Shown in pieces: positions 1,763 to 53,839 of a DNA stretch of 59,442 bases. The DNA lies in the NCBI GenBank assembly GCA_027487625.1, contig JAIYDG010000144.1, forward strand, positions 1-59,442, read 5' to 3'. The translations under genes were made by a program, and so were the position numbers. Within the stretch, counting starts at the first letter, position 1, and each line of letters starts with the position of its first letter. Source of the DNA: Bacteroidota bacterium (GTDB lineage: Bacteria; Bacteroidota; Bacteroidia; UKL13-3). The notes under the pieces were generated by a model. That model was not told where the DNA came from and did not search any database. It saw only the letters and a program-made list of their open reading frames with translations.

Positions 1763-1834
<72 letters not shown>

Positions 1835-4648: not shown

Positions 4649-5062
4649 CTACTTGTGTTTATCCCAATATTTTTTACCATAAGCACAAAAAATCTCTTCG
4701 CCCGCTTTGATTTTTCTTTTGGCAACCAGACAAATTTTATTGGTATCCTCTAATTTGATAATGGCATTATTGGTAAAATCAGATTTTGAAAAACCATCGG
4801 CATCATTCGCATATTTCGCAAAACAATCAGTTAATGATGTATCGAAAACAGAACCATTAGGCAAGTTCATGAAGTAACGGTCTTCTTTTTTCAAAACCCT
4901 GATTTTAGCTTGTTTTTGACTTAAAACCTCGCCTTTAAAAATTGAGATAATTTCATCTTTATAAATATCAATAGCTGTGAACAATCCCAATCCAGCACCT
5001 GAAATATTTGATTCCTGTATGAATAAATAATCCCTTTCCTCACTATCTATCGACTGATCCAT
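4649..5062 (-). CDS. SET-domain protein (putative lysine methyltransferase)
   Basis: 137-aa ORF with ISGAGLGLFT...IYKDEII..FKGEV, YANDADG and IKAGEEIFCAYG motifs arranged as in minimal SET domains. Confidence 0.65.
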   Translation of the reverse strand: MDQSIDSEERDYLFIQESNISGAGLGLFTAIDIYKDEIISIFKGEVLSQKQAKIRVLKKEDRYFMNLPNGSVFDTSLTDCFAKYANDADGFSKSDFTNNAIIKLEDTNKICLVAKRKIKAGEEIFCAYGKKYWDKHK

Positions 5063-5190
5063 GCGCTAAATATCAATATTTCTTCAAAAAAATCAAAGGA
5101 ATTAAAAAAATTCAATCGTTCACTTTGCAAAACTATCAACCAAAAAACAAGACAAATGGTTTATTAATTGATTTTAATAGTTGAAAATAA

Positions 5191-5442
5191 ATGTCAATTT
5201 GCAGTATGCCTAATTCCGCTAAAGAAAATATCAGAATCTTGAGTTTAATCATCATCAGTTTGATTATTATTTTCATTGGCATAATCATGATGTTATCTGG
5301 AAACGATACGAATCCTTATACATCATTGGATTTAGGCCCAAGTTTGCAATTAAAAATCAGTAATACACAGCAATTATTGGTAGGTGGAATTTGTTTTGCT
5401 TCAGTGATAGTATTGTTCGGAAAACGAAATCAGCATCACTAA
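5191..5442 (+). CDS. Small membrane protein (two predicted TM helices)
   Basis: 83-aa ORF with hydrophobic stretches ILSLIIISLIIIFIGIIMML and LLVGGICFASVIVLF. The true start may be ATG 5206, 4 nt after a TTTG box. Confidence 0.4.
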   Translation: MSICSMPNSAKENIRILSLIIISLIIIFIGIIMMLSGNDTNPYTSLDLGPSLQLKISNTQQLLVGGICFASVIVLFGKRNQHH

Positions 5443-5466
5443 AGAAATATTCCTTTTCTTTGCAGT

Positions 5467-6348
5467 ATGTCATTTAAATCTGGATTTGTTGCCATTATAG
5501 GCAAACCCAATGTGGGAAAATCAACCTTACTCAATGCAATACTTGGGGAGAAACTTTCGATTGCCACTCAAAAAGCACAAACTACACGTCACCGTATCAA
5601 GGGAATTTATAATACACCTGAATGTCAGATTGTATTTTCCGATACCCCCGGAATCATTGAGCCTAAATACAAACTTCAGGGCAGTATGATGAAATTTGTG
5701 AATGAAAGTTTAGCAGATTGTGACCTGGTTTTATTTATGACAGATTTCAATGACTACAATGAAGAACCTGAACTTATTGAAAAACTTAAACTCATTCAAA
5801 CTCCTGTAATTTGTATCATTAACAAAATTGATGAGCACAGTCAGGAAGAAGTTGTAGCTAAAATTGAATTTTGGAAAAAGCTTGAAATCTTTAAAGAAAT
5901 TATTCCTGCTTCGGCAAGTAATCAGTTTAATATGGACATCATTCTAAAATCATTGATGGAATATTTACCTGTTGGAGCTCCATTTTACGACCAAGACCAA
6001 TTAACAGATAAAAGTGAAAGATTTGTTGCTTCTGAAATCATCAGAGAAAAAATCTTATTGAGATACAAAGAAGAAATTCCTTACTCGGTTCAGGTAGAAA
6101 TTGAGAGTTTTAAAGAAGAAGAAAAAATAATTAGAATAAGCGCAGTAATTTATGTGATGCGCGCTTCGCAAAAAATAATCATGATTGGAAAAGGTGGAAT
6201 TGCCATTAAAAACATGGGAATTGCAGCTCGTCGTGATTTAGAATTATTCTTCAAAAAACAAATATTCCTTCAAACCTTTGTGAAGGTAAAAGAAGATTGG
6301 AGAGACAACGATAGAACCCTAAAACAATTTGGTTACGAGACTGAATAA
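5467..6348 (+). CDS. era: GTPase Era
   Basis: 293 aa. G1 GKPNVGKST, G3 DTPG and G4 NKID motifs, plus a C-terminal KH-domain region. Confidence 0.95.
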   Translation: MSFKSGFVAIIGKPNVGKSTLLNAILGEKLSIATQKAQTTRHRIKGIYNTPECQIVFSDTPGIIEPKYKLQGSMMKFVNESLADCDLVLFMTDFNDYNEEPELIEKLKLIQTPVICIINKIDEHSQEEVVAKIEFWKKLEIFKEIIPASASNQFNMDIILKSLMEYLPVGAPFYDQDQLTDKSERFVASEIIREKILLRYKEEIPYSVQVEIESFKEEEKIIRISAVIYVMRASQKIIMIGKGGIAIKNMGIAARRDLELFFKKQIFLQTFVKVKEDWRDNDRTLKQFGYETE

Positions 6349-9940: not shown

Positions 9941-10007
9941 GTTTTACCCTTTGTAGACAAACTCTCTTGAAATAACAATGTTTTACATGGATACCAATAA
10001 CTATACC

Positions 10008-10430
10008 ATGTCACAAAAAATCAGTATTCCAATTTTATTCATTCTAGCATTATTTACTTTCCAATCTTCTAAAGCTCAAAACAGAACAGATTCTCTGCAA
10101 GCAGTGAATTTTTTTGGAACTATTTATGCTGTTAAAAGTAGCACCGCCCTTCAACTTAGTGAATTAAAACCTTTAGTAAAAAACAATCAAAATGCTTTTA
10201 AATCATTCAAAAAAGCAAGAAGAATTAAAGCATTCAGCATCGGTTTAGAAATTATTTCAATAATACCTGCTGCATTTGCAATTGCTACAGAAAATGAAAC
10301 AGAATTTTGGATAGGAATCGGAGTATCAGGAATTCTTAATGGAGTTGGTACCTATTTAATGTTAGATCCCTACAATAAACACATCACCAATTGCATCAAA
10401 GAATACAATAAGGGAAATAGTTATAGATAG
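10008..10430 (+). CDS. Hypothetical exported/membrane protein
   Basis: The ATG at 10008 gives a signal peptide (MSQKISIPILFILALFTFQSSKAQ), and two C-terminal hydrophobic helices follow. Its TAG stop is formed by the first bases of repeat copy A. Confidence 0.5.
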   Translation: MSQKISIPILFILALFTFQSSKAQNRTDSLQAVNFFGTIYAVKSSTALQLSELKPLVKNNQNAFKSFKKARRIKAFSIGLEIISIIPAAFAIATENETEFWIGIGVSGILNGVGTYLMLDPYNKHITNCIKEYNKGNSYR

Positions 10431-10764
10431 GGCCTGCTGAAAATTCATAATAGTACTTATTATCAACCAATTAGACTGTTTTTTTAATGATTTAAATTCA
10501 AGGTTTTAAGAGCAATTGTTAAAAAATCCTTGCATCAAGTACAATTAGTTTTCAATTAACTTAAAGACAGAAACAAGGCCATCTTTGTCGTTGCTGCCAA
10601 ATTGAAGTATCATACATACATCTTAAACACAAAATGGAAATCAAACAGTTTAATACAGAGGCAATTTTGTTTAGGCCAATTTGTTGGACTTTAACAAAAT
10701 GCATTCGGTATAATTTGGCAGCGTCTAAAATCTGACCTGTTTCTGTCTTTTTCAGCGGGCCCTA
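10428..10764 (+). repeat. Copy A of a TIR-bounded structured element (MITE or ncRNA), 337 nt
   Basis: Starts TAGGGCCTGCTGAAAA and ends TTTTCAGCGGGCCCTA. Colinear with 38981-39227, with a 63-nt identical core at 10548-10610, nested long-range stems, and a 90-nt insertion (10624-10713) in the apical loop relative to copy B. Confidence 0.85.
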
Positions 10765-10770
10765 GATAAC

Positions 10771-10804
10771 AAAAAAGCCATTCGCAAAACGAATGGCTTT
10801 TTTG
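10771..10804. terminator. Bidirectional terminator between convergent genes
   Basis: AAGCCATTCG-CAAAA-CGAATGGCTT hairpin flanked by an A-run and a T-run. Confidence 0.7.
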
Positions 10805-34699: not shown

Positions 34700-37600
34700 A
34701 TGAAGAAGCTATACCTTTTCATTTTTGTATTTTTATTTAGCATGGTTTCATTTGCTCAAAAAGCAAGAACAATTGCAGGTAATATTGATGCAAACACAAC
34801 ACTATTTAGTGACACAATCTACACATTAGACGGTTACGTTTATGTAAAGAACAACGCTACACTAACAATTCAACCTGGAACCATTATAAAAGGTAAATCA
34901 GGTACAAAAGCAACATTAATCATCACTAGAAATGGAATGATTAATGCCAATGGAACTCCTACAAGACCAATTGTTTTCACATCTGACAAAGCTATTAATG
35001 CTAGAAGCAAAGGTGATTGGGGTGGAATAGTAATCCTTGGAAAAGCAAAAATCAATCGTCCAACAGATTGTTCTACTTGCCCAGGAGCAACAGTTGCTGC
35101 TGCTGAAGCTGGAATTCAAGCTGCTGTTGAAGGCGACGTTGATAATACCAATGGTGATGCATTATATGGCGGAAATGATGACAATCACAATTCAGGAACA
35201 TTACGTTTTGTTCGTATTGAATTTGCTGGAACTGTAATCACCCCAGGTAATGAAATTAATGGTTTAACTATGGGTGGAGTTGGTAAAGCAACACAAATAA
35301 ATAATATCCAAGTTTCATTTGCTGATGATGATGGTTTTGAATGGTTCGGTGGAACTGTAGATGCAAAACACTTAGTATCATTCAGAAACGTTGATGATGA
35401 TTTTGATACTGATTTTGGTTATACTGGAAAAGTACAATTTGGAATCGCATTACGTGATTCATTGTTATATGATATTGGTACTGGACCAACTACAAACGGA
35501 TTTGAATCTGATAATGATGGTTCTGGTACTGAAGCACAACCATTTACTGAACCTACCTTTTCTAATATGACAATTTTAGGCCCTTTAGCCAATGGAACTC
35601 CTTTAACTTATAATAACTCTTTCCAAAATGGAGCACGTTTAAGAAGAAATACTTCAACAAGTATTTTCAATTCAGTGTTTATGGGTTGGAATGATGGTGT
35701 ATTCATCGATGGTGCGCGTGCAGTAAACAAACACCAAAACGATACATTGTTATACAAAAACAATATTCTTGCTGGAAATATCAGAGCAGTAAATGGTACT
35801 TCTACAGGTGGTTCAAATCCAACTGCTACAAGAGCAAAAATATTTGCAAACGCTAATGATTCAATTACTTCATCAGCTGGAATTTTATCTGATCCTTTTA
35901 ATTATTTGAATCCAAATTTCACACCTGCATCTGGTTCACCAGCATTAACAGGTGCATCATTTACAGGTGCTAAAATTTCTGATGGTTTCTTTAATTCTAC
36001 AACTTATAGAGGTGCAATGGGTAGTGAAAACTGGACATCTTGCTGGTGTAATTTCAACCCAAATACAGCTAATTACGATAATGCTCCATTAAACTTAATG
36101 CCATTAACTTATGATGCTGGAAAAGATTCAACAATTTGTTCTGGACGTTCTTTAGTAATCGGACAAACATTAAGTGGTGTTTATAAAGCTACTTGGTTCC
36201 CAACAACAGGTTTAAGTTCAGCTACAGCTGCTCGTCCTACAGCAACTCCTAGTGTTACTACAAAATATTATGTAACAGTTACAGATTCTGTAACAGGATG
36301 TGCAATGGTTGATAGTATTTTAGTTACAGTTAACCCTACTCCTACTGCTAATTTCACATCAGCAAATGGTACAGGTGCTGGTGTAGTTGAATTCACTAAT
36401 ACATCTACAAATGCCACAACTTATTCTTGGAATTTTGGTGATGGAAATACTTCAACCGCAACAAGTCCTAGTAATACTTATGCAGCAAATGGAACTTATA
36501 CAGTAAGATTAACTGCTATTTCAGGAACATGTAATAATGCAACAAGCAGACAAATTAATGTTACAGGTATTGCTTCTCCAGTTAGAGCATTTACAGGTGA
36601 TATTACTTCAAATACAACTTTCTATTCTGATACCATTTACATCATCAATGGTTATACTTATGTAAAAAACAACGCTACTTTAACAATTCAACCTGGAACT
36701 ATTATTAAAGGTGGTGCAAACAAAGCAACTTTAATTATAACTCGTAATGGTAAAATTGAAGCGAATGGTACAAAAAACCAACCTATTGTTTTCACTTCTG
36801 GTAAGTCAGCTGGTCAACGTGCTAAAGGTGATTGGGGTGGATTGGTAATTCTTGGAAAAGCAGTTATTAATCGTCCTACTGATTGTACAACTTGCCCTGG
36901 TTCTGCTGTTGCTGCTGGTGAAGCAGGAATTCAAAATGCAGTTGAAGGTGACTTAGATAATACTTCTGGTGATGCATTATATGGTGGTCAAGATGATAAT
37001 CACAATGCAGGAACTTTAAAATATGTTAGAATTGAATACGCAGGAACAGTTATTACTCCTGGTAACGAAATCAATGGTTTAACTATGGGTGGTATTGGTA
37101 AACAAACTACTATTGAATACGTTCAAGTTTCATTTGCAGATGATGATGCATTTGAATGGTTTGGTGGTTCTGCTGATGCGAAACATTTGGTATCTTACAG
37201 AAACGTAGATGACGATTTAGACGTTGATTTTGGTTTCTCAGGAAGAGTTCAATATGCAATTGTATTAAGAGATTCTTTATTATATGATATCGGTCAAGGT
37301 CCAACTACAAATGGATTCGAATCTGATAATGATGGTTCTGGTTCAGAAGCTAAACCTTATACAAATCCAACTTTCTCAAACATTACTGTTTTAGGTCCAT
37401 TAGCAAATGGAACTGCTTTAACTTATAACAACTCATTCCAAAACGGTGCTCGTATCAGAAGAAATTCTTCTACAAGTATCTACAATTCAATTTTCATGGG
37501 TTGGAATGATGCATTATTCATTGATGGAGCTCGTTCGGTAAACAAACACCAAAACGATACTTTGATGTACAAAAACAATTTATTAGCTGGAAATATTCGT

Positions 37601-38707
37601 GCAGTAAATGGAACTTCAACAGGTGGTTCAAATCCTGGTTTAACAAGAAGCAAAATTTTCTCAAACGGAACTGATTCATTGGCTTCTGCTAGTGGTGTTT
37701 TAGCTGATCCTTTTAACTACTTAAATCCTAATTTTGCTCCTCAGGTTGGTTCGCCTGCTTTAACTGGTGCTTCATTCAGTGATTCAAGAATTTCAGATCC
37801 TTTCTTTACTGCTACTTCATACAGAGGTGCATTAAGTGAAAATGCTGATAGTAACTGGACAAACTGCTGGTGTAATTTTGATCCTCAAAATGCAAATTAC
37901 AATTCATCACCAATTAATAACCCTGCTGCAACTGCTAACTTTACAGCTCCTACAACTTCTAACTCATTAAAAGTTGATTTTGCTAATACTTCATCAAATG
38001 CAGTATCATACATGTGGGATTTTGGTGTAGCTACTAGCACAACTGATACATCATCTGCTGCTAGTCCTAGCTTTACTTATCCTGCAAATGGTAAATACAC
38101 TGTAACATTAGTTGCAAAAAGCAAATGTGGTAATTCTGTTAAAACATTTGAAATAACTATTAATGATGTAAGTATCCTTCCAATAGTTGATTTCACATTT
38201 GTACAAAATACTACAACAGGTTCAAGAGAGTTAACTTTTACAAATGCAACAACTGAAAAAGGATTAACTATCGATTATTCATGGAAATTTGGTGATGGTG
38301 CAACTGCAAATACTAAAAATGCAACTCACACTTATACTTCAAATGGAAATTATACAGTTACTTTAATTGCAACTCATATTTATGGTGTTGATTCAGTTTC
38401 AAAAACAATTAATGTAATTGCTACATCAGTAAGTGAAGAAGTATCTGCTTTCAACAACTTTGTTATGTATCCAAATCCAACAAGAGAAAATGTAACTATT
38501 GATTTCAATTTAATTAAATCAGAAACAGTTTCAGTTTCAATTATGGATTTATCAGGTAAAGAAATCATCAGTTTACCTGCTTCTAGAATGAATGTTGGAA
38601 AACAATCAATGGAATTAAACACATCAGAATTATCTGAAGGTATGTATATCGTAAGAGTAAATGGAGTTGAATCTTCTATTAGCTCTAGATTGGTTATCAT
38701 AAAATAA
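34700..38707 (+). CDS. T9SS-secreted protein with an internally duplicated ~450-aa module, three PKD-like domains and a type-A CTD
   Basis: 1335 aa. After the signal peptide, two copies of a module carry GDWGG(I/L)VILGKA, CxTCPG, GNEINGLTMGG, FADDD.FEWFGG, NVDDD.D.DFG, TNGFESDNDGSG and CWCNF motifs. PKD-like segments follow (SWNFGDGNTS, MWDFG, SWKFGDGAT), and the C-terminus is FVMYPNPTRENVTI...MYIVRV. Confidence 0.8.
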   Translation: MKKLYLFIFVFLFSMVSFAQKARTIAGNIDANTTLFSDTIYTLDGYVYVKNNATLTIQPGTIIKGKSGTKATLIITRNGMINANGTPTRPIVFTSDKAINARSKGDWGGIVILGKAKINRPTDCSTCPGATVAAAEAGIQAAVEGDVDNTNGDALYGGNDDNHNSGTLRFVRIEFAGTVITPGNEINGLTMGGVGKATQINNIQVSFADDDGFEWFGGTVDAKHLVSFRNVDDDFDTDFGYTGKVQFGIALRDSLLYDIGTGPTTNGFESDNDGSGTEAQPFTEPTFSNMTILGPLANGTPLTYNNSFQNGARLRRNTSTSIFNSVFMGWNDGVFIDGARAVNKHQNDTLLYKNNILAGNIRAVNGTSTGGSNPTATRAKIFANANDSITSSAGILSDPFNYLNPNFTPASGSPALTGASFTGAKISDGFFNSTTYRGAMGSENWTSCWCNFNPNTANYDNAPLNLMPLTYDAGKDSTICSGRSLVIGQTLSGVYKATWFPTTGLSSATAARPTATPSVTTKYYVTVTDSVTGCAMVDSILVTVNPTPTANFTSANGTGAGVVEFTNTSTNATTYSWNFGDGNTSTATSPSNTYAANGTYTVRLTAISGTCNNATSRQINVTGIASPVRAFTGDITSNTTFYSDTIYIINGYTYVKNNATLTIQPGTIIKGGANKATLIITRNGKIEANGTKNQPIVFTSGKSAGQRAKGDWGGLVILGKAVINRPTDCTTCPGSAVAAGEAGIQNAVEGDLDNTSGDALYGGQDDNHNAGTLKYVRIEYAGTVITPGNEINGLTMGGIGKQTTIEYVQVSFADDDAFEWFGGSADAKHLVSYRNVDDDLDVDFGFSGRVQYAIVLRDSLLYDIGQGPTTNGFESDNDGSGSEAKPYTNPTFSNITVLGPLANGTALTYNNSFQNGARIRRNSSTSIYNSIFMGWNDALFIDGARSVNKHQNDTLMYKNNLLAGNIRAVNGTSTGGSNPGLTRSKIFSNGTDSLASASGVLADPFNYLNPNFAPQVGSPALTGASFSDSRISDPFFTATSYRGALSENADSNWTNCWCNFDPQNANYNSSPINNPAATANFTAPTTSNSLKVDFANTSSNAVSYMWDFGVATSTTDTSSAASPSFTYPANGKYTVTLVAKSKCGNSVKTFEITINDVSILPIVDFTFVQNTTTGSRELTFTNATTEKGLTIDYSWKFGDGATANTKNATHTYTSNGNYTVTLIATHIYGVDSVSKTINVIATSVSEEVSAFNNFVMYPNPTRENVTIDFNLIKSETVSVSIMDLSGKEIISLPASRMNVGKQSMELNTSELSEGMYIVRVNGVESSISSRLVIIK
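34763..36095 (+). repeat. Module copy 1 of the in-frame tandem duplication
   Basis: aa ~22-465 of the 1335-aa protein. Aligns colinearly, by eye at roughly three quarters identity, with aa ~628-1072. Confidence 0.85.
36581..37915 (+). repeat. Module copy 2 of the in-frame tandem duplication
   Basis: Begins VRAFTGDITSNTTFYSDTIY and ends CWCNFDPQNANYNSSP. Offset ~1818 nt from copy 1. Confidence 0.85.
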
Positions 38708-38923: not shown

Positions 38924-38950
38924 AAAAAGCCTCCCTCGGGAGGCTTTTTT
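38924..38950. terminator. Strong bidirectional terminator with no CDS immediately upstream on the + strand
   Basis: AAAAAGCCTCCC-TCG-GGAGGCTTTTTT. On the minus strand it lies downstream of the thiamine pyrophosphokinase gene and repeat copy B. Confidence 0.75.
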
Positions 38951-38980
38951 ATTTAGTACTAGTTAAACTCTCGCTTATTT

Positions 38981-39227
38981 TAGGGCCTGCTGAAAACCTT
39001 TAGTAGAACTTGTTATCAATCAATTAGACTATATTTTAATAATTTAAATGCAAGGTTTTAAGAGTAATTGCTTAAAATCCTTGCATTAAGTACAATTGGT
39101 TTTCAATTAACTTAAAGACAGAAACAAGGCCATCTTTGTCGTTGCTGCCAAATTGAAGTATTATATATACATCTGTTTTGGCAGCGTCTAAAATCTGACC
39201 TGTTTCAGTCTTTTTCAGCGGGCCCTA
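38981..39227 (+). repeat. Copy B of the TIR-bounded structured element, 247 nt
   Basis: Same 16-nt termini as copy A, a 63-nt identical core (39099-39161) and the same orientation. It lacks the 90-nt apical insertion. Confidence 0.85.
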
Positions 39228-39244
39228 TTTAATAATCGAAAATA

Positions 39245-40016: not shown

Positions 40017-43000
40017 ATGAAAAATACTTTACAAAATCTCAAATTATGCAGTACACTACTGGTACTCTTAGCTTTAGGATTAACACAAGTAAAAGCTCAA
40101 GTTAGCTTAAATTTCCTAGGAAGGTATTCAACAGGCATTTACAACAATGCTGCTGCTGAAATTACAGCCTATGATCCAATCACGAAAAGACTTTTTATTA
40201 CAAACGGTCCTGATACCTCACTAAAAATTGTGAATATCAGTAATCCAACAAATCCTACTTTAGTTACATCATTATCTATAAAACCTTATGGTATTGATTT
40301 AACATCTGTTACTTGCAAAAACGGAATTGTTGCAATTGCAGTAATCGATTCAAATGGAAAAACAAATCCAAGTAGCATCGTATTTCTTGATGCAAATGGA
40401 ACTTTCCTAAGTAAAGTAAAAGCTGGTCCAAATGCTGATATGATTACTTTTACTCCTGATGGAAGAAAAGTATTAGTAGCCAATGAAGGTGAACCAAACT
40501 TAGGTTATACAATCGATCCTGAAGGTTCTGTTTCTATCATTGATATCAGTGGTGGAATTTCTAATTTGAATCAATCTCACGTAAGTACAGCTACATTCAC
40601 AGCCTTTAATAATGTAACTTTAGACAAAAGCATCAGGGTATTTGGTAGAATCCAAACAACAGGTGGTGCTTTCTTAAGAAATTCAACTGTTGCTGAAGAT
40701 ATGGAACCTGAATACTTAGCAGTTTCAGATGATAGCAAAACTGTTTGGGCAACATGTCAAGAAAACAATTGTATTGCTGAAATTAGTGTCGATAGTGCTT
40801 ATATCAGAAAATTAATTCCATTAGGATTTAAGAATCATTCATTACCGGGCAACGGATTGGATGCTTCTGATAATGGTTCTACAATTAATATTGCAAACTA
40901 TCCTGTATTTGGTTTATACGATCCAGATGCAATTGCTTATTCAAGATTAAACAACACTAACTATTTATTCACTGCAAACGAAGGTGATGCTAGAGCTGAT
41001 TGGGGTGCTGCAAATGTTGAAGAAGTTAGATTTGGAAGTTCTGCATACGTTGTTGATACAGCTAAATTTGGTGGAACAGCAGCAGTTACAGCTTTAAAAG
41101 CAAATACTGCTTTAGGTAGACTTACTGTAAGCAACAGATTCGGTGATTTTAACAATGATGGTAAAATGGATTCTGCATTCTGCTTTGGTGGAAGATCTTT
41201 CTCTATTTGGGATGCAAATACAGGAACATTGGTTTGGGATAGCAAAGATGAATTTGAACAAATTATAAAAAATAGATTACCTGCAAATTTTAATGCCAGT
41301 CATACTGCAAATACATTAAAAAATAGAAGTGATGATAAAGGTCCTGAACCAGAAGCCATCACGCTTGGAAAAATAGGCGATAGTACTTATGCGTTCATTG
41401 GTTTAGAAAGAGTTGGTGGTATAATGGTATTTAATGTTACAAACCCAAGCAACCCTTATTTCGCTAATTATATCAATACAAGAAATTTCTCAGTTACACC
41501 TGGTTCTGGAACATTAGCAACTGTTGGTGATTTAGGTCCTGAAGGTTTAGTTTTTGTTCCTGCTTCACAAAGTCCAAATGGTAAAAACATGATTATTTTA
41601 TCAAATGAGATTAGTGGTACAGTTGCTTTATTTGAAATCAAATCAAAATCAGATTTCCAATTACAAGTTTTACATGCTTCAGATATGGAATCAGGAATTG
41701 ATGCTGTAATTGATGCACCAAACTTTGCAGCAGTATTAGACAAATTAGAAGATGAACACAATAGCACATTAAAATTAGCTTCTGGTGATTGTTATATCCC
41801 TGGACCGTTTTTAGCAGCAGGTGAAGATGCTAGTTTACAAACACCATTAAGAAATACTGCTTCATCATATTTCCCTGGAACAACTTCTGGTTTAAGAGCT
41901 GCAATTGGTAGAGTTGATATTGCTATGATGAATATTATGGGCTTCCAAGGTTCAGCTTTAGGAAACCATGAATTTGATTTAGGAACAGCGGAAGTTAACA
42001 GCATTATTGGTGTTGATATTAGAAGTAATGGTAACGATAAAAGATGGATTGGCGCACAGTTTCCATACTTAAGCGCAAACCTTGATTTTACAAATGATAT
42101 CAACTTATCATACTTATATACCAACCAAAGATTACATACAGATTCATTCAAAACTAAAGCAACTATTACAGCTAATTCACAAAAGAAAGGTTTAGCACCT
42201 TCTGCAATTGCAATGGTTAATGGACAAAAAATAGGATTGGTTGGTGCTACAACTCAATTGCTTGCTAATATTTCTTCACCTGGAGCAACAATAGTTAAAG
42301 GTGGTAATTCTGATAACATGGCTGCTTTGGCTGCTGTTTTACAACCAGTAATTGATTCATTAAGATTTACTGAAGGTATCAACAAAATTATTGTAATGAG
42401 TCATTTACAACAATTGGCAAATGAAGAAGCATTGGCTCCATGGTTAAAAGGAGTTGATATCATCATTGCCGGTGGTTCACATAGTTTATTAGCTGATAGC
42501 AATGATAGATTAAGAACTGGTCATACAGCAGTTAGAACTTATCCTATTATGAAAACCAATTTTGATGGTGAGCCATTAGCTATTTTAAATACTAGTTCAG
42601 AATGGAAATATATTGGAAGATTTGTTGTTGATTTCGACTCAGCGGGAGTAATTATTCCTTCGATGTTAAATAGTGTAATCAATGGAGCTTATGCTGCTGA
42701 TAGCGCAATGGTTACTTCATTATACGGAAATTATGCTACTGCATTCACAGCAGGAACAAAAGGTGCTTTAGTTAGAACTTTAACTTCTGCTATTGGAAAT
42801 GTCATCAACAATAAAGATGGTAATAAATTTGGTAAGACATCTGTATTCTTAGAAGGTAGAAGAAATGCAGTAAGAACAGAAGAATCAAACCTTGGAAATT
42901 TATCATCAGATGCAAACTTATGGGTTGCTAGAAGAGTTGATCCAACTGTAAAAATTTCTATTAAAAATGGTGGTGGAATTCGTTCTGCTATTGGTGAAGT

Positions 43001-45593
43001 ATTTGCTGCTGGTAGTTTGGTTGAATTAAGACCAACTGCTGCTAATCCTGGTGCTAATAAAGTAAGTGGTGATATTAGTCAGCTTGATATTGAAAACTCA
43101 TTACGTTTCAATAACAAACTTTCTATCTTAAGCGTAAATGCTGCTGGTTTAAGAAGAATTGTTGAACATGGTATTTCAGCTACAACTCCTGGTGCTACTC
43201 CTGGACAATTCCCTCAAGTTGGTGGAATTCAATTCAGTTATGATACCACATTGGCAAGAGGAAGCAGAATTCGTTCATTGGTTGTTTTAGACAGTTTAGG
43301 CGTAAGAACAGATACAGTAGTTAGAAATGGTCAATTATATGGCGATACTTCAAAAGTATTTAAATTGGTTACTTTAGACTTTTTAGCTGGTGGTGGTGAT
43401 AACTATCCTTTCCCTGCAAACGGATTCAACAGAATCAATTTAGATACAGCTTTAAAAGATTCTATGTATGCAAGATTCCAAGCCAATGGAACTGAACAAG
43501 ATGCTTTTGCTGATTTTATGTATGCGAAACACAATACTACAGCTTATGCAGTAAGAGATACAAACTTATTAGGTGATACAAGAATTCAGTTATTAAATGC
43601 AAGAAGAGATGGAATCTTCCCTGAAACCAATCCTGCAATAAGTATTGCTGCTGCAAGAGCAATCTCTGCTCCAACAATGGTAAGAATAAGAGGAGTTGTA
43701 ACACGTGCTTATGGAAGATTCATTTATATCCAAGATGCAACAGCTGGTATCGGTGTTCGTCAATCTTCTGGTGACATGGTAAATGCGATTACCAATAATT
43801 TGTTACAAGAAGGAGATAGCGTTGAAGTTCTAGGACCAAGAAACGACTTTAATAACTATGCACAAATTCAATTAGCAAGCGGAGTTTATACTAGCACAAA
43901 TACAGTTATCAAATTAGGAACTACAAGTGTACCTGCACCTATTGAATTAACATTAAAACAAATTAACCAACAAGGTGAAATGTATGAAAGTAGATTGGTA
44001 AAAGTTGTTGGATTAAACAGCATTCAAAAAGGAACATTCACTGCTAGTTCAAATGTTACAGTTTATGATGGAAGCACTGCCGGAGATACAACAATCCTAA
44101 GAATTTTAGCTTCTGCTGATACTGAAATTGATGATGCACCAGCTCTTAAAATTCCTAATGGAGATTTTGTGTTTGAAGGAATTTTAGCTCAGTTCTGTAG
44201 TTCACCTGCTGCCAATTGTGCTACTGGTTACCAATTGTATGCTGTAAGAAAAAAAGACATTACTCCTAGTGTTATTCAATTGGGTATGTTTAACTTATTA
44301 AATCCAGCTGATAATGCTGTTTTAACAACTAAATCAAACAACTCAACAAATGTTGTAATCGATTGGAATAACTCAAACAAAGCAGTTTCTTATAAATGGA
44401 TGTTAGATGTACCTTCTGGAAACTTCTCTGCTCCTGTATTAACAATACCTGCTATGGCAAAAGATACATTTATCTCACTTAGAAATAGTCAAATCGATAC
44501 TGTCTTAGCTGGTTTAGGATTAAAAACAGGCGATTCAATTGCTACTAAATGGACAGTTTATGCATACAGTGCAAACAACGATTCATTGATGAGCAATAAT
44601 ACTTTCAACCTAACTTTAAAAAGAGCTGCGGTATTAACTCCATTTGCATTGGTTAGTCCACTTAACAATTCAAGAGTAGTAGTTAAAGAAGGTGCTGCTG
44701 ATATCATCCAAGCTAAATGGAACAAATCACAAGCTGCTATTGGATACAAATGGAAAGCTACTCCATTAAATGGAACTTTCACTAATGCTTTATTAAGTGT
44801 TGCATCCGATAAAGTAGGAACTGATACTGTATTAACTTTAAACTCAGGTTTGGTTGATGGTATTTTAGCTGGATTAGGTATTCAAAAAGGTGATTCAGTT
44901 GAATTAAAATGGACAGTTTATGCTTTCGAAAATGTTACTGATTCATTAGAAGCTAGTAATGTATTTAACATCAAATTGGTGAGAGCAAATCCTTTAAATG
45001 CATTTAATTTATTAACTCCATCAAATGGAGCAAGATTAGTAGTTAAAGAAGGTGATAATACACCAGTAAGCATTACTTGGGAAGCTTCAAACAATGTTGC
45101 TTCTTACAAATGGATTGCTTCAACTAATACAACATTAATTCCTGAATTATTGAGAATCAATTCTGATAATAACGGTAAAGCAACTACATTAACTTTAACA
45201 TCAAATGCAATTGATGCTGTTTTGGCTGCCAATGGTATCGCAAAAGGAGATTCATTGGAATTAAAATGGACAGTTAGAGCTTATGATGCAACAGATTCAT
45301 TACAAGCAAACCAAGTCTTTGGAGTTAAAATCATCAGAGACAGAGCTACCGGAATTGATGTTGTAAATGCAGGTAACAACTGGACTATTTACCCAGTACC
45401 AACAAGTTCAATATTAAATATAAGCAGTAAAAACAACAGTTCATTTGTTGCTGAAATTATGAGTATGGATGGTAAATCATTGAAAAAATCGAATATCTCA
45501 AGTATTGATGTTTCAGATTTAAGTTCAGGAATGTATATTTTGATGATACACTCAGAAGGACAAAGCAAATCGTTTAGATTTACTAAAGACTAA
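40017..45593 (+). CDS. Giant T9SS-secreted fusion: choice-of-anchor-I-like propeller + 5'-nucleotidase/metallophosphoesterase + OB-fold + three repeat domains + CTD
   Basis: 1858 aa. Signal peptide, then N-terminal AAEITAYDP...RLFITNG / EPEY / GPEG repeats. Calcineurin-like phosphoesterase motifs follow (HASDMES, GNHEFDLG), then a 5'-NT C-terminal-like region and an OB-fold like those in extracellular nucleases (VRIRGVVTRAYGRFIYIQD...EGDSVEV). Three ~119-aa repeats and the CTD (WTIYPVPTSSILNI...MYILMI) complete the protein. Confidence 0.75.
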   Translation: MKNTLQNLKLCSTLLVLLALGLTQVKAQVSLNFLGRYSTGIYNNAAAEITAYDPITKRLFITNGPDTSLKIVNISNPTNPTLVTSLSIKPYGIDLTSVTCKNGIVAIAVIDSNGKTNPSSIVFLDANGTFLSKVKAGPNADMITFTPDGRKVLVANEGEPNLGYTIDPEGSVSIIDISGGISNLNQSHVSTATFTAFNNVTLDKSIRVFGRIQTTGGAFLRNSTVAEDMEPEYLAVSDDSKTVWATCQENNCIAEISVDSAYIRKLIPLGFKNHSLPGNGLDASDNGSTINIANYPVFGLYDPDAIAYSRLNNTNYLFTANEGDARADWGAANVEEVRFGSSAYVVDTAKFGGTAAVTALKANTALGRLTVSNRFGDFNNDGKMDSAFCFGGRSFSIWDANTGTLVWDSKDEFEQIIKNRLPANFNASHTANTLKNRSDDKGPEPEAITLGKIGDSTYAFIGLERVGGIMVFNVTNPSNPYFANYINTRNFSVTPGSGTLATVGDLGPEGLVFVPASQSPNGKNMIILSNEISGTVALFEIKSKSDFQLQVLHASDMESGIDAVIDAPNFAAVLDKLEDEHNSTLKLASGDCYIPGPFLAAGEDASLQTPLRNTASSYFPGTTSGLRAAIGRVDIAMMNIMGFQGSALGNHEFDLGTAEVNSIIGVDIRSNGNDKRWIGAQFPYLSANLDFTNDINLSYLYTNQRLHTDSFKTKATITANSQKKGLAPSAIAMVNGQKIGLVGATTQLLANISSPGATIVKGGNSDNMAALAAVLQPVIDSLRFTEGINKIIVMSHLQQLANEEALAPWLKGVDIIIAGGSHSLLADSNDRLRTGHTAVRTYPIMKTNFDGEPLAILNTSSEWKYIGRFVVDFDSAGVIIPSMLNSVINGAYAADSAMVTSLYGNYATAFTAGTKGALVRTLTSAIGNVINNKDGNKFGKTSVFLEGRRNAVRTEESNLGNLSSDANLWVARRVDPTVKISIKNGGGIRSAIGEVFAAGSLVELRPTAANPGANKVSGDISQLDIENSLRFNNKLSILSVNAAGLRRIVEHGISATTPGATPGQFPQVGGIQFSYDTTLARGSRIRSLVVLDSLGVRTDTVVRNGQLYGDTSKVFKLVTLDFLAGGGDNYPFPANGFNRINLDTALKDSMYARFQANGTEQDAFADFMYAKHNTTAYAVRDTNLLGDTRIQLLNARRDGIFPETNPAISIAAARAISAPTMVRIRGVVTRAYGRFIYIQDATAGIGVRQSSGDMVNAITNNLLQEGDSVEVLGPRNDFNNYAQIQLASGVYTSTNTVIKLGTTSVPAPIELTLKQINQQGEMYESRLVKVVGLNSIQKGTFTASSNVTVYDGSTAGDTTILRILASADTEIDDAPALKIPNGDFVFEGILAQFCSSPAANCATGYQLYAVRKKDITPSVIQLGMFNLLNPADNAVLTTKSNNSTNVVIDWNNSNKAVSYKWMLDVPSGNFSAPVLTIPAMAKDTFISLRNSQIDTVLAGLGLKTGDSIATKWTVYAYSANNDSLMSNNTFNLTLKRAAVLTPFALVSPLNNSRVVVKEGAADIIQAKWNKSQAAIGYKWKATPLNGTFTNALLSVASDKVGTDTVLTLNSGLVDGILAGLGIQKGDSVELKWTVYAFENVTDSLEASNVFNIKLVRANPLNAFNLLTPSNGARLVVKEGDNTPVSITWEASNNVASYKWIASTNTTLIPELLRINSDNNGKATTLTLTSNAIDAVLAANGIAKGDSLELKWTVRAYDATDSLQANQVFGVKIIRDRATGIDVVNAGNNWTIYPVPTSSILNISSKNNSSFVAEIMSMDGKSLKKSNISSIDVSDLSSGMYILMIHSEGQSKSFRFTKD
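44280..45344 (+). repeat. Three tandem ~355-nt in-frame repeats (~119-aa domains)
   Basis: Units start near 44280, 44631 and 44991. Each contains ...(S/G)YKW...L(A/S)GLG(L/I)(K/Q)(T/K)GDS(I/V/L)..KWTV(Y/R)A(Y/F)... Confidence 0.7.
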
Positions 45594-52450: not shown

Positions 52451-52606
52451 ATCGCCATTGATTTTGGTGGCACATTTGTATTATTTTCAACGCATAGACC
52501 AACGCAAAAAAATTCAAAAGTGCCCCCAAGCCAGTGAACAAAGACAGCAGCAAAGAATGGACAACCTAGCAAAGACAGACAAAACGCCAGCCCCTAACAA
52601 CACATC

Positions 52607-52668
52607 TGCAATAGGCGTACATTAAGTCTCCATTTGCAGTGATTTATGGGATTGGTAAATTCGTTTCC
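52607..52668 (+). repeat. 62-nt direct repeat R1 carrying a near-consensus promoter
   Basis: 57/62 identical to 53380-53441. Contains TTTG (52633-52636), a 19-nt spacer and TAAATTCG (52656-52663). Confidence 0.8.
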
Positions 52669-52743
52669 CTAAGCTACATTTGAGTATAAACGCTCGCCCA
52701 TCGCAAATTTACAAAACGTTATAGCCAATTTTAAAAGACAACT

Positions 52744-53352
52744 GTGAAGATAAGGACACTTATTTTGATTGTATTAATATGGGTTATGTTGACTTTGGTT
52801 AACTACTATTACATTCCTTTTTTCTTTATTGTACTCAATTGGTTAGGAATGTCTCTCGTACTTCTAATTTGGACAATAGTACAGACCCAAAAAACAATTA
52901 AGGAAAGGAATAACCTTTCTAAACAGAGAATTATTTCTACTTTGACAATCTTTGTCCTATTCATTTTTACCTTTTATCGAAAACCAGTAAATAGATTAAT
53001 AGAACAAGCTGACTGGCGCATGTTTTATTCGAAAAGAATAGGTGTTATTAACTTAATAAAAGAAGGTAAATTGACACCAAATGAGGGTTGGAATAACTGG
53101 ACATATGAACTCCCCTACGAATTTCCAATTATTTCAAATAATGGTAATGAAATTGAAATTACTAGAAATGATAGCACTAAAAATATGACTGTAACTTTTT
53201 GGATTTTCAGAAACTACTTTAATGCTCCATCGACATATTTTGTTTATACTGATGACCAAATAGAAATTAGCAAAATTGAAGATATTATAAAAAATAATCC
53301 TGAGGACAACTGGAAAATAACTAACAATTGGTACAGAAGATGTCATAAGTGA
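52744..53352 (+). CDS. Hypothetical membrane-anchored protein (orphan)
   Basis: 202 aa with a GTG start. Three N-terminal TM helices and a soluble C-terminal domain rich in Asn, Trp and Tyr. No family recognised. Bracketed by an 11-bp inverted repeat. Confidence 0.5.
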   Translation: MKIRTLILIVLIWVMLTLVNYYYIPFFFIVLNWLGMSLVLLIWTIVQTQKTIKERNNLSKQRIISTLTIFVLFIFTFYRKPVNRLIEQADWRMFYSKRIGVINLIKEGKLTPNEGWNNWTYELPYEFPIISNNGNEIEITRNDSTKNMTVTFWIFRNYFNAPSTYFVYTDDQIEISKIEDIIKNNPEDNWKITNNWYRRCHK

Positions 53353-53379
53353 TATAAAAACTGGCTATAACGGCATATT

Positions 53380-53441
53380 TGCAATAGGCTTACAATTAGT
53401 CTCAATTTGCAGTGATTTATGCGATTGGTAAATTCGTTTCC
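53380..53441 (+). repeat. 62-nt direct repeat R2 carrying a near-consensus promoter
   Basis: Second copy of R1. Contains TTTG (53406-53409), a 19-nt spacer and TAAATTCG (53429-53436), ~120 nt upstream of higB. Confidence 0.8.
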
Positions 53442-53557
53442 ACAAATTTCATTAAAATTTAAACTCAAATCCCCAACATGTTATTCTGCAATAAAAAAAA
53501 TCTTCTTGTAGACTTAATTTACTATACTTATCTTTGGCGTTAGTATCGTAAGAAGAG

Positions 53558-53839
53558 ATGATTATATCATTTGGAAATAAGGAAACAGAGAAAATTTGGA
53601 ATGGTGAACGAGTAAAGGGACTATCCGCCGAGATTCAAGAAGTTGGAAGACGAAAACTCAGGATGCTAAACAACTCTACCAATATTAGCGACCTGAGAGT
53701 TCCTCCCTCGAATAGGCTTGAAAAACTGAGTGGGAACTTTAAAGAGTTTTACAGTATCAGAATCAACGACCAATGGAGAATCATATTCAAATGGAAATCA
53801 TCAAATGCTACTGATGTTGAAATAATAGATTATCATTAA
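53558..53839 (+). CDS. higB: Type II toxin HigB (RelE/ParE superfamily, 'plasmid maintenance system killer')
   Basis: 93 aa. The pattern MIISFGNKETEKIWNGERVKGL..., L..L.., LRVPPSNRLEKLSG....YSIRINDQWRI.F.W is typical of HigB. Confidence 0.85.
   Translation: MIISFGNKETEKIWNGERVKGLSAEIQEVGRRKLRMLNNSTNISDLRVPPSNRLEKLSGNFKEFYSIRINDQWRIIFKWKSSNATDVEIIDYH

Follow-up and report, generated by a model that had tools for sequence, protein, structure and literature searches.

Two similar intergenic blocks in a contig of an uncultured Bacteroidota bacterium (JAIYDG010000144.1; its 59,442 nucleotides are the window analysed here) raise the question of whether a structured RNA gene or a mobile element has left two copies of itself in the same genome. 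An earlier note on this DNA had argued that the differences between the copies, here called A and B, keep base pairing only if the plus strand is the RNA, and had also observed that both lie in gaps between convergent genes, a typical neutral landing site for MITEs. The data presented below indicate that copies A and B are very probably insertions of a non-autonomous DNA transposon (MITE), which has ISMae6-type IS5-family ends and no coding capacity.

The 247 nt of copy B (38981-39227) are homologous to the 337 nt of copy A (10428-10764), with 91% identity over all aligned positions. By blastn (E 1e-69), the two are 89% identical along 196 nt and 98% identical along 51 nt, and the surplus of ~88 nt in copy A falls within an apical loop. 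Both copies run from TAGGGCCTGCTGAAAA to TTTTCAGCGGGCCCTA. The core of copy B (GGGCC...GGGCCC, 38983-39225, plus strand, where plus denotes the orientation of the transposase sense in the parent-type IS) was recognized as a family member by blastn and nhmmer (267 bits), and so was the long-form core of copy A (10430-10762, plus strand; nhmmer, 250 bits). The family ends in 14-bp terminal inverted repeats, GGGCCTGCTGAAAA and GGGCCCGCTGAAAA, complementary at 13 of their 14 positions and the same in almost every copy; in copy B the left one (38983-38996, plus strand) is near-invariant among copies and identical to the ends of IS-sized elements described below, and the right one (39212-39225) reads GGGCCCGCTGAAAA on the minus strand. 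The T/C difference between the left and right repeats is fixed throughout the family. Immediately outside the cores, copy A is flanked by an exact 6-bp repeat, TAGATA (10424-10429 and 10763-10768), and copy B by TATTTTA (38976-38982) and TATTTA (39226-39231), an imperfect duplication whose one-base indel suggests an older insertion. Direct repeats of 6-7 bp with the form TA-N2-3-TA flank the family cores (TAAATA, TATCTA and TAAGTA elsewhere, and the 7-bp TAATGTA in L031), with one mismatch in the duplications of several older copies; their central NN is identical in 8 of 13 own pairs, as compared to 21 of 156 cross pairs.

Three internal parts can be told apart in copy B: the hairpin H2 (GCAAGG...CCTTGC, 39050-39084, plus strand), the hairpin H3 (39087-39114, and 10536-10563 in copy A; assigned to neither strand), and the H4 domain, a long hairpin of ~93-96 nt on the minus strand (39116-39211; covariance model R1, 85.4 bits). 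The H4 domain of copy A (10565-10748, minus strand), placed by alignment and by a partial match of the covariance model at 10566-10657 (24.8 bits), is split in its upper part by an insert of ~88 nt (10623-10710), which defines a long subfamily that also includes L014, L019 and L027b/c. This long-form insert is independent of the 5′-half subtypes, as the 5′ half of L027b resembles that of the short copy L028a and yet L027b has the insert, which points to recombination among copies or to repeated loss of the 88 nt. Copy B contains no ORF of 40 aa or more, and the sole ORF of copy A (47 aa) is not conserved in other copies.

The genomic contexts of both copies proved to be as the earlier note had described them, and for copy A an empty site could be recovered. 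Two contigs (L156 and L157), found as orthologues of the 150-aa ORF that adjoins copy A (90% and 80% aa identity), show in succession the left flank of the window, a single T(C/A)GATA and the right flank of the window, with the empty site reading ...AATAGTTA TCGATA ACAAAAAAGCCATTCGC... The ORF at 9978-10430 ends in a TAG made of the target TA and the first G of the element, and the empty site reads AGA/CGA TAA at this point; insertion thus replaced a TAA stop by TAG without changing the protein. The gap between the same convergent genes measures 42-49 nt in more distant relatives, as compared to 390 nt in the window. A terminator hairpin of the convergent genes, read from the sequence at 10771-10804, lies directly 3′ of the stop codon at the L156 empty site. 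The insertion of copy B separates the stop codon of the thiamine pyrophosphokinase (TPK) gene from a bidirectional intrinsic terminator (38924-38950). The element is absent at this site in L003, L005 and L162, with flanks that are not alignable base for base: in L162, whose TPK is 92% identical, 29 nt separate the terminator from the TPK stop and the element is missing, and the orthologous TPK loci at 85% identity show unrelated intergenic sequence, no element and no clean empty site. A search for an empty site in strains with identical neighbour proteins gave none, the contigs breaking inside the element. Each copy parts a gene from its terminator and would therefore become part of a 3′ UTR, with A and B oppositely oriented; by the positions of genes and terminators, the TPK transcript would carry the minus strand of copy B in its 3′ UTR, and the transcript of the ORF at 9978-10430 the plus strand of copy A.

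The window contains two very large genes for secreted proteins (34700-38707 and 40017-45593), which have internal DNA repeats (D1-D5, D10) and whose orthologues show PKD, beta-helix, SusE-like, 5′-nucleotidase and Por secretion-tail domains. Elsewhere, the window contains a tRNA gene (1763-1834, minus strand, 66.4 bits) and a match to the Rfam Flavo-1 RNA (RF01705; 54226-54304, plus strand; 46.8 bits versus a gathering score of 42), which fits a Bacteroidota host. It also harbours a non-coding 97-nt direct repeat (52595-52691 and 53368-53464, 81% identity, 773 nt apart), located just upstream of the ORFs 52744-53352 and 53558-53839, which may be a common leader or promoter or another small repeat.

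Copies A and B are members of a dispersed family. A genome scan, using as pattern the two GC-rich stems of the element, matched 10 stretches of the MAG Bacteroidia bacterium CCAP1403_21_bin-002 (JBIMKP01) and two further Bacteroidia MAGs, and in JBIMKP01 at least 12 dispersed copies, tandem and truncated ones included, were delineated by blastn and nhmmer. Pairwise identity among copies ranges from 79 to 100%, and L028a equals L027a at 100% identity, yet their flanks differ. In the window's own species, short-read contigs end inside the element, as expected for a repeat. A metagenome scan with a 16-nt inverted-repeat pattern yielded ISs and distant MITEs and, among the matches listed, at least a handful of copies from the window's own family (L144, L092 and L143/L136). 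By blastn, copy B had no match in phage and plasmid collections, and the core 22-mer had 0 matches in viral contigs, where the inverted-repeat pattern matched seven times; one of these matches (L011) is a related MITE.

Some of the elements seen in these scans deserve a description of their own. The one in L011 (7270-7539 of IMGVR_UViG_3300009826_001457, a predicted viral contig) is 266 bp long, with ends GGTTCTGCTGAAAA / GGGCCTGCTGAAAA, an exact TAAATA duplication and an unrelated interior. In L027, two MITE copies lie head to tail (5150-5646) with one TAAATA common to both, as if the later copy had inserted into the target duplication left by the earlier one. At ~4817-5211 of the same locus (JBIMKP010000015.1), a long-form copy has its H4 apical region interrupted by a second, unrelated MITE-like element of ~395 bp. 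This nested element is bounded by the inverted repeats TACGAATATCCGC...GCGGATATTCG and by 8 duplicated bp, AAGTATTT; in its interior lies a perfect, GC-rich hairpin of 25 bp. Scan matches in Maribellus and Draconibacterium were discarded, as they correspond to a conserved coding region and not to the element.

A probable autonomous partner of the family can be recognized by its ends. Metagenome contigs fetched by the end pattern contain at least 17 elements of 237-391 bp and at least three of 1593-1787 bp, that have the ends GGG(C/T)CTGCTGAA(A/T)A and whose 6-bp TANNTA duplication is exact. The IS-sized elements (L059 632-2226, L061 57-1649 and L150 1219-3005) combine MITE-type ends and duplication with an IS5-family transposase: their proteins of 485-548 aa match NCBIfam NF033578 (IS5 family) with 386-442 bits, versus a cut-off of 275, and also Pfam DUF772 and DDE_Tnp_1_2. 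Homologous transposases adjoin an inverted-repeat match in at least 12 further contigs. The sequence GGGCCTGCTGAAAA(A) forms the ends of L059, L061, L082 and L139, with 2-3 mismatches to ISMae6, and TAATTA or TAAGTA is duplicated at three IS copies and at ISMae6. The latter, a 1686-bp IS5-family element (PMC2779907, Table 1), is the closest named element to these transposases (51% aa identity, in a range of 40-51%). The ISMae6 copy examined on a Microcystis plasmid has the ends GGGTTTGCTGAATA / GGGTTTGCTGAAAA and a TAATTA duplication.

The kinship with these ISs reaches inwards from the left end. Just upstream of the transposase start, the IS left ends, that of ISMae6 included, contain a motif (A)GTGCA-N~30-TGCA(C) that corresponds to the H2 of the MITE, and by nhmmer the left end of L150 is similar to the 5′ half of the MITE (E 5e-5). 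This common motif implies that the MITE plus strand is the transposase sense, and that its first ~110 nt, H2 included, probably go back to the left end of an IS. Beyond these ~110 left nt and the right inverted repeat, the MITE has nothing in common with the ISs examined, in which the right-hand 130 nt (H3 and H4) were not found. The motif itself is hairpin-like (L061 ~57-200, L150 1219-1340, L056, L082 and L163 335-450) and stops 10-20 nt short of the likely start of the transposase, MY(K/R)KRD...; it could control translation or transcription, or be bound by the transposase. Neither the window nor the ~100 kb examined of JBIMKP01 contains a transposase of the ISMae6 type; in this host, the element would presumably be mobilized in trans.

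Copies A and B, at 247 and 337 bp, stay below ~600 bp and have no transposase ORF; the family shows terminal inverted repeats, a target-site duplication and dispersed copies, with a precise empty site for copy A and an autonomous counterpart whose ends and duplication agree with its own. Such features are the ones by which MITEs are defined (PMC10969869). The suggestion that both convergent gaps had received a MITE was borne out by target-site duplication, empty site, copy number and autonomous partner. Mobilization would start with a DDE transposase of an ISMae6-type IS which, supplied in trans, would bind both element ends. Insertion would then take place at TA-N2-3-TA through a staggered cut of 6-7 bp, leading to the flanking duplication. 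This transposase lineage is presumably the one that moves the window's MITE family, and the host would have, or have had, a copy of it. An IS630/Tc1-type origin, prompted by the flanking TA, was rejected, as the duplication is of 6-7 bp and the partner transposase is of the IS5 family.

A second question is related to the right-hand part of the element. The nhmmer searches and the covariance model link the window's family to the divergent MITEs L083, L131, L041, L045, L063, L078 and L034, which come from unrelated metagenome contigs among the matches listed, and partial matches were obtained in L124 and L070. What the window's family and the divergent MITEs have in common is the ~93-nt H4 domain, which adjoins the right inverted repeat; the seven IS copies examined lack it, and covariance model R1 finds none in them at E<=1. 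On the minus strand, H4 forms the same long hairpin in every lineage: a helix a of ~16 bp, a 2x2 loop (usually GA/GA), a helix b of 3 bp, a loop, a helix c of 6 bp and a helix d of 3 bp, closed by an apex GAUGUAU-N4-5-AUACUUCGA with one non-paired position (GAUGUAU-N5-AUACUUC in copy B). In a plain MAFFT alignment (A5), 98.2% of the cells pair, as compared to 77.7±1.8% in shuffles, and double-sided changes occur in 17 of 20 pairs, versus 7.3±1.5 in shuffles (reached by 0 of 500) and 2-6 with slid partners. An alignment fitted to the covariance model (A6) gives double changes in 29 of 33 pairs versus 15.5±2.2 (0 of 500), a result given less weight than that of A5 because A6 leans toward the model; A6 also places the outer helix of the window's family out of register with that of the distant lineages, which makes its wobble counts (44 versus 20) noisy and of little weight. 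Rfam gave 0 matches for the distant members L045 and L083. The H4 apex motif matched 18 times in viral contigs, but these candidates were set aside, since chance alone would give about as many and the covariance model fits the apex only.

In the distant relatives, one strand is also favoured. In six distant lineages, H4 folds with -27 to -48 kcal/mol on the minus strand and -16 to -28 kcal/mol on the plus strand, and the consensus fold of the six reaches -40.4 kcal/mol with 31 pairs on minus versus -13.6 kcal/mol with 22 pairs on plus. Along the minus-fold ladders, 25 wobbles fall on minus and 4 on plus; along the plus-fold ladders, the counts are 10 and 9. In the window's own family the strand asymmetry of H4 is small (-39.9 versus -34.8). 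The idea that wobbles can reveal the working strand, on which the earlier note relied, thus holds for H4 in the distant relatives and only there, and the strand that they indicate is minus, not plus.

All this could still be the behaviour of a plain MITE with functionless hairpins, in which the covariation of H4 would come from repair or template switching between the arms of a quasi-palindrome, and the wobble asymmetry from composition, the minus strand having more G than C. Such an explanation falls distinctly short of probable, but it is a serious one: the window's family shows neither covariation nor strand bias, the shuffled minus strands of the distant elements, with G>C, are also somewhat more stable, the whole-element z-scores of L131 are equal on both strands, and stable folding is generic to MITE transcripts (PMC10969869). 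However, arm-to-arm correction should remove mismatches, and yet the asymmetric loops, the tandem GA/GA and the non-paired position next to the apex persist, even in lineages with almost no helix sequence in common. Moreover, the composition-controlled z-scores of H4 favour minus in 6 of 6 distant lineages (-2.8 to -7.7 versus -1.1 to -3.7), and the difference in consensus fold between the two strands points the same way. The strand asymmetry is therefore partly compositional, and the remainder, as judged by the z-scores, is not. Strand-biased deamination of cytosines was discarded as a source of the wobble asymmetry, as the minus strands have G>C but no excess of T over A. A plain, structure-neutral selfish MITE does not predict H4, on account of its covariation, conserved internal loops and strand-asymmetric wobbles. 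We tentatively regard H4, at a little less than an even chance, as an undescribed structured passenger module on a widespread MITE lineage mobilized by IS5/ISMae6-type elements, maintained through compensatory changes and selected as a single-stranded molecule of the minus strand, that is, antisense to the transposase direction. The molecule could be an RNA, acting for example on read-through transcripts or on the transposase system, or alternatively a folded DNA strand required in the mobilization of the element itself.

With respect to the proposal that copies A and B are paralogous copies of a structured non-coding RNA gene on the plus strand, most of what had suggested it is real. The hairpins in which substitutions had been reported, and the substitutions themselves, were recovered at the same positions, and the A/B changes in the 5′ hairpin and at the apex of H2 are G:U-compatible on plus. 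Two U:G pairs, one in the terminal stem and one in the GCTGCCAA stem, are present and fixed in 12 of 12 aligned family copies, where their presence in all copies implies inheritance from the founder copy. The fold is very stable, and copy A is co-oriented with its upstream gene. However, pairing compatibility is not restricted to the plus strand, as had been claimed. Folding both copies on both strands, a check that the earlier note had itself proposed, gave plus no advantage: ViennaRNA predicts -83.2 kcal/mol (z -8.3) on plus and -84.9 (z -8.2) on minus for copy B, and -93.3 kcal/mol on plus and -95.3 on minus for copy A, an equally stable folding of both strands that follows from the inverted-repeat architecture. 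The A/B differences in H3 (10536 C versus 39087 T; 10547 A versus 39098 G) give C.A and A.C on the plus strand of copy A and are wobble pairs on minus only, with -0.6 for the H3 of copy A on plus versus -5.0 on minus. Minus has fixed wobble sites as well (e.g. the alignment column pair 152/308); wobble-only cells over 13 copies number 34 on plus and 41 on minus, and the more stable strand is minus in 9 of 13 family copies.

The collection of homologues and the covariation test, also proposed in that note, lent the plus strand no support either. Among 13 full copies of the window's family, covariation does not exceed that of shuffles (one double-change pair, matched by 202 of 500 shuffles), the covariation term of RNAalifold is +0.65, and there is no strand bias. 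The G:U signal between copies A and B is made of wobbles inherited from the founder plus a few chance transitions. For the elements of the window, Rfam gave 0 matches at the gathering thresholds, and its permissive E-value mode yielded sub-threshold noise only. Furthermore, the element is not kept at syntenic positions, its neighbours and orientation vary, and mechanical calls based on ORFs of at least 100 aa that read toward the element place six copies in sense and six in antisense. With at least 12 dispersed copies of mixed orientation that show duplications and empty sites, and a conserved H4 domain that favours minus in distant relatives, a plus-strand RNA gene becomes very improbable.

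Least credible of all is a REP/REPIN or IS200/IS605-derived palindromic element moved as single-stranded DNA by an HUH (Y1) transposase, which would suit the extensive hairpins and the strand-asymmetric wobbles of H4, but elements of these kinds are not known to have terminal inverted repeats or a target duplication, and the window element has both, the transposase encoded between identical ends is of the DDE type and the IS5 family, and no TnpA(Y1) or RAYT gene was seen beside any copy.

Copies A and B, as MITE insertions, are similar to the ISMae6-type ISs in their ends, GGG(C/T)(C/T)TGCTGAA(A/T)A, in the 6-bp TA-NN-TA duplication, and in H2, which resembles the IS left-end hairpin TGCA...AAAACCCTTGCA upstream of the transposase start. 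Unlike those ISs, they measure 247-337 bp, lack a transposase gene, and contain an H3 and an H4 with no counterpart in the seven IS copies examined. Their host is an uncultured freshwater lineage of Bacteroidia, whereas that of ISMae6 is a cyanobacterium, Microcystis aeruginosa. Bacterial MITEs, such as the Correia elements of Neisseria, ERIC, Nezha, the MaeMITEs of cyanobacteria and BrickBuilt of Porphyromonas, are short, AT-rich, non-coding, intergenic and multicopy elements with inverted and direct repeats, often found 3′ of genes, whose transcripts are predicted to fold stably (PMC10969869). The window's MITE has the same general features, and differs from them in its ends and its duplication. 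Correia elements, for instance, have TA as target duplication. To our knowledge, the family has no earlier description, and, short of a dedicated literature search, we have met no report of a MITE-internal domain with cross-lineage covariation and a preferred strand. Integron attC sites and the ends of IS200/IS605 elements are imperfect hairpins in which structure is kept over sequence, unpaired positions are retained and one strand is active. H4 resembles them by analogy only, as the elements that carry it have DDE-type inverted repeats and a duplication, and no integrase or HUH transposase.

For the annotation of this genome, two intergenic blocks that look like structured RNAs find their explanation in transposon insertions. 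The analysis also defines a MITE family of uncultured freshwater Bacteroidia, unnamed until now, and ties it to an ISMae6-like transposase lineage and to a target rule, TA-N2-3-TA with a 6-7 bp duplication, both of which extend to many unrelated MITEs of metagenomes. As to H4, from which any wider import of these elements would come, it would represent, if functional, a structured nucleic-acid module that has spread by hitch-hiking on MITEs.
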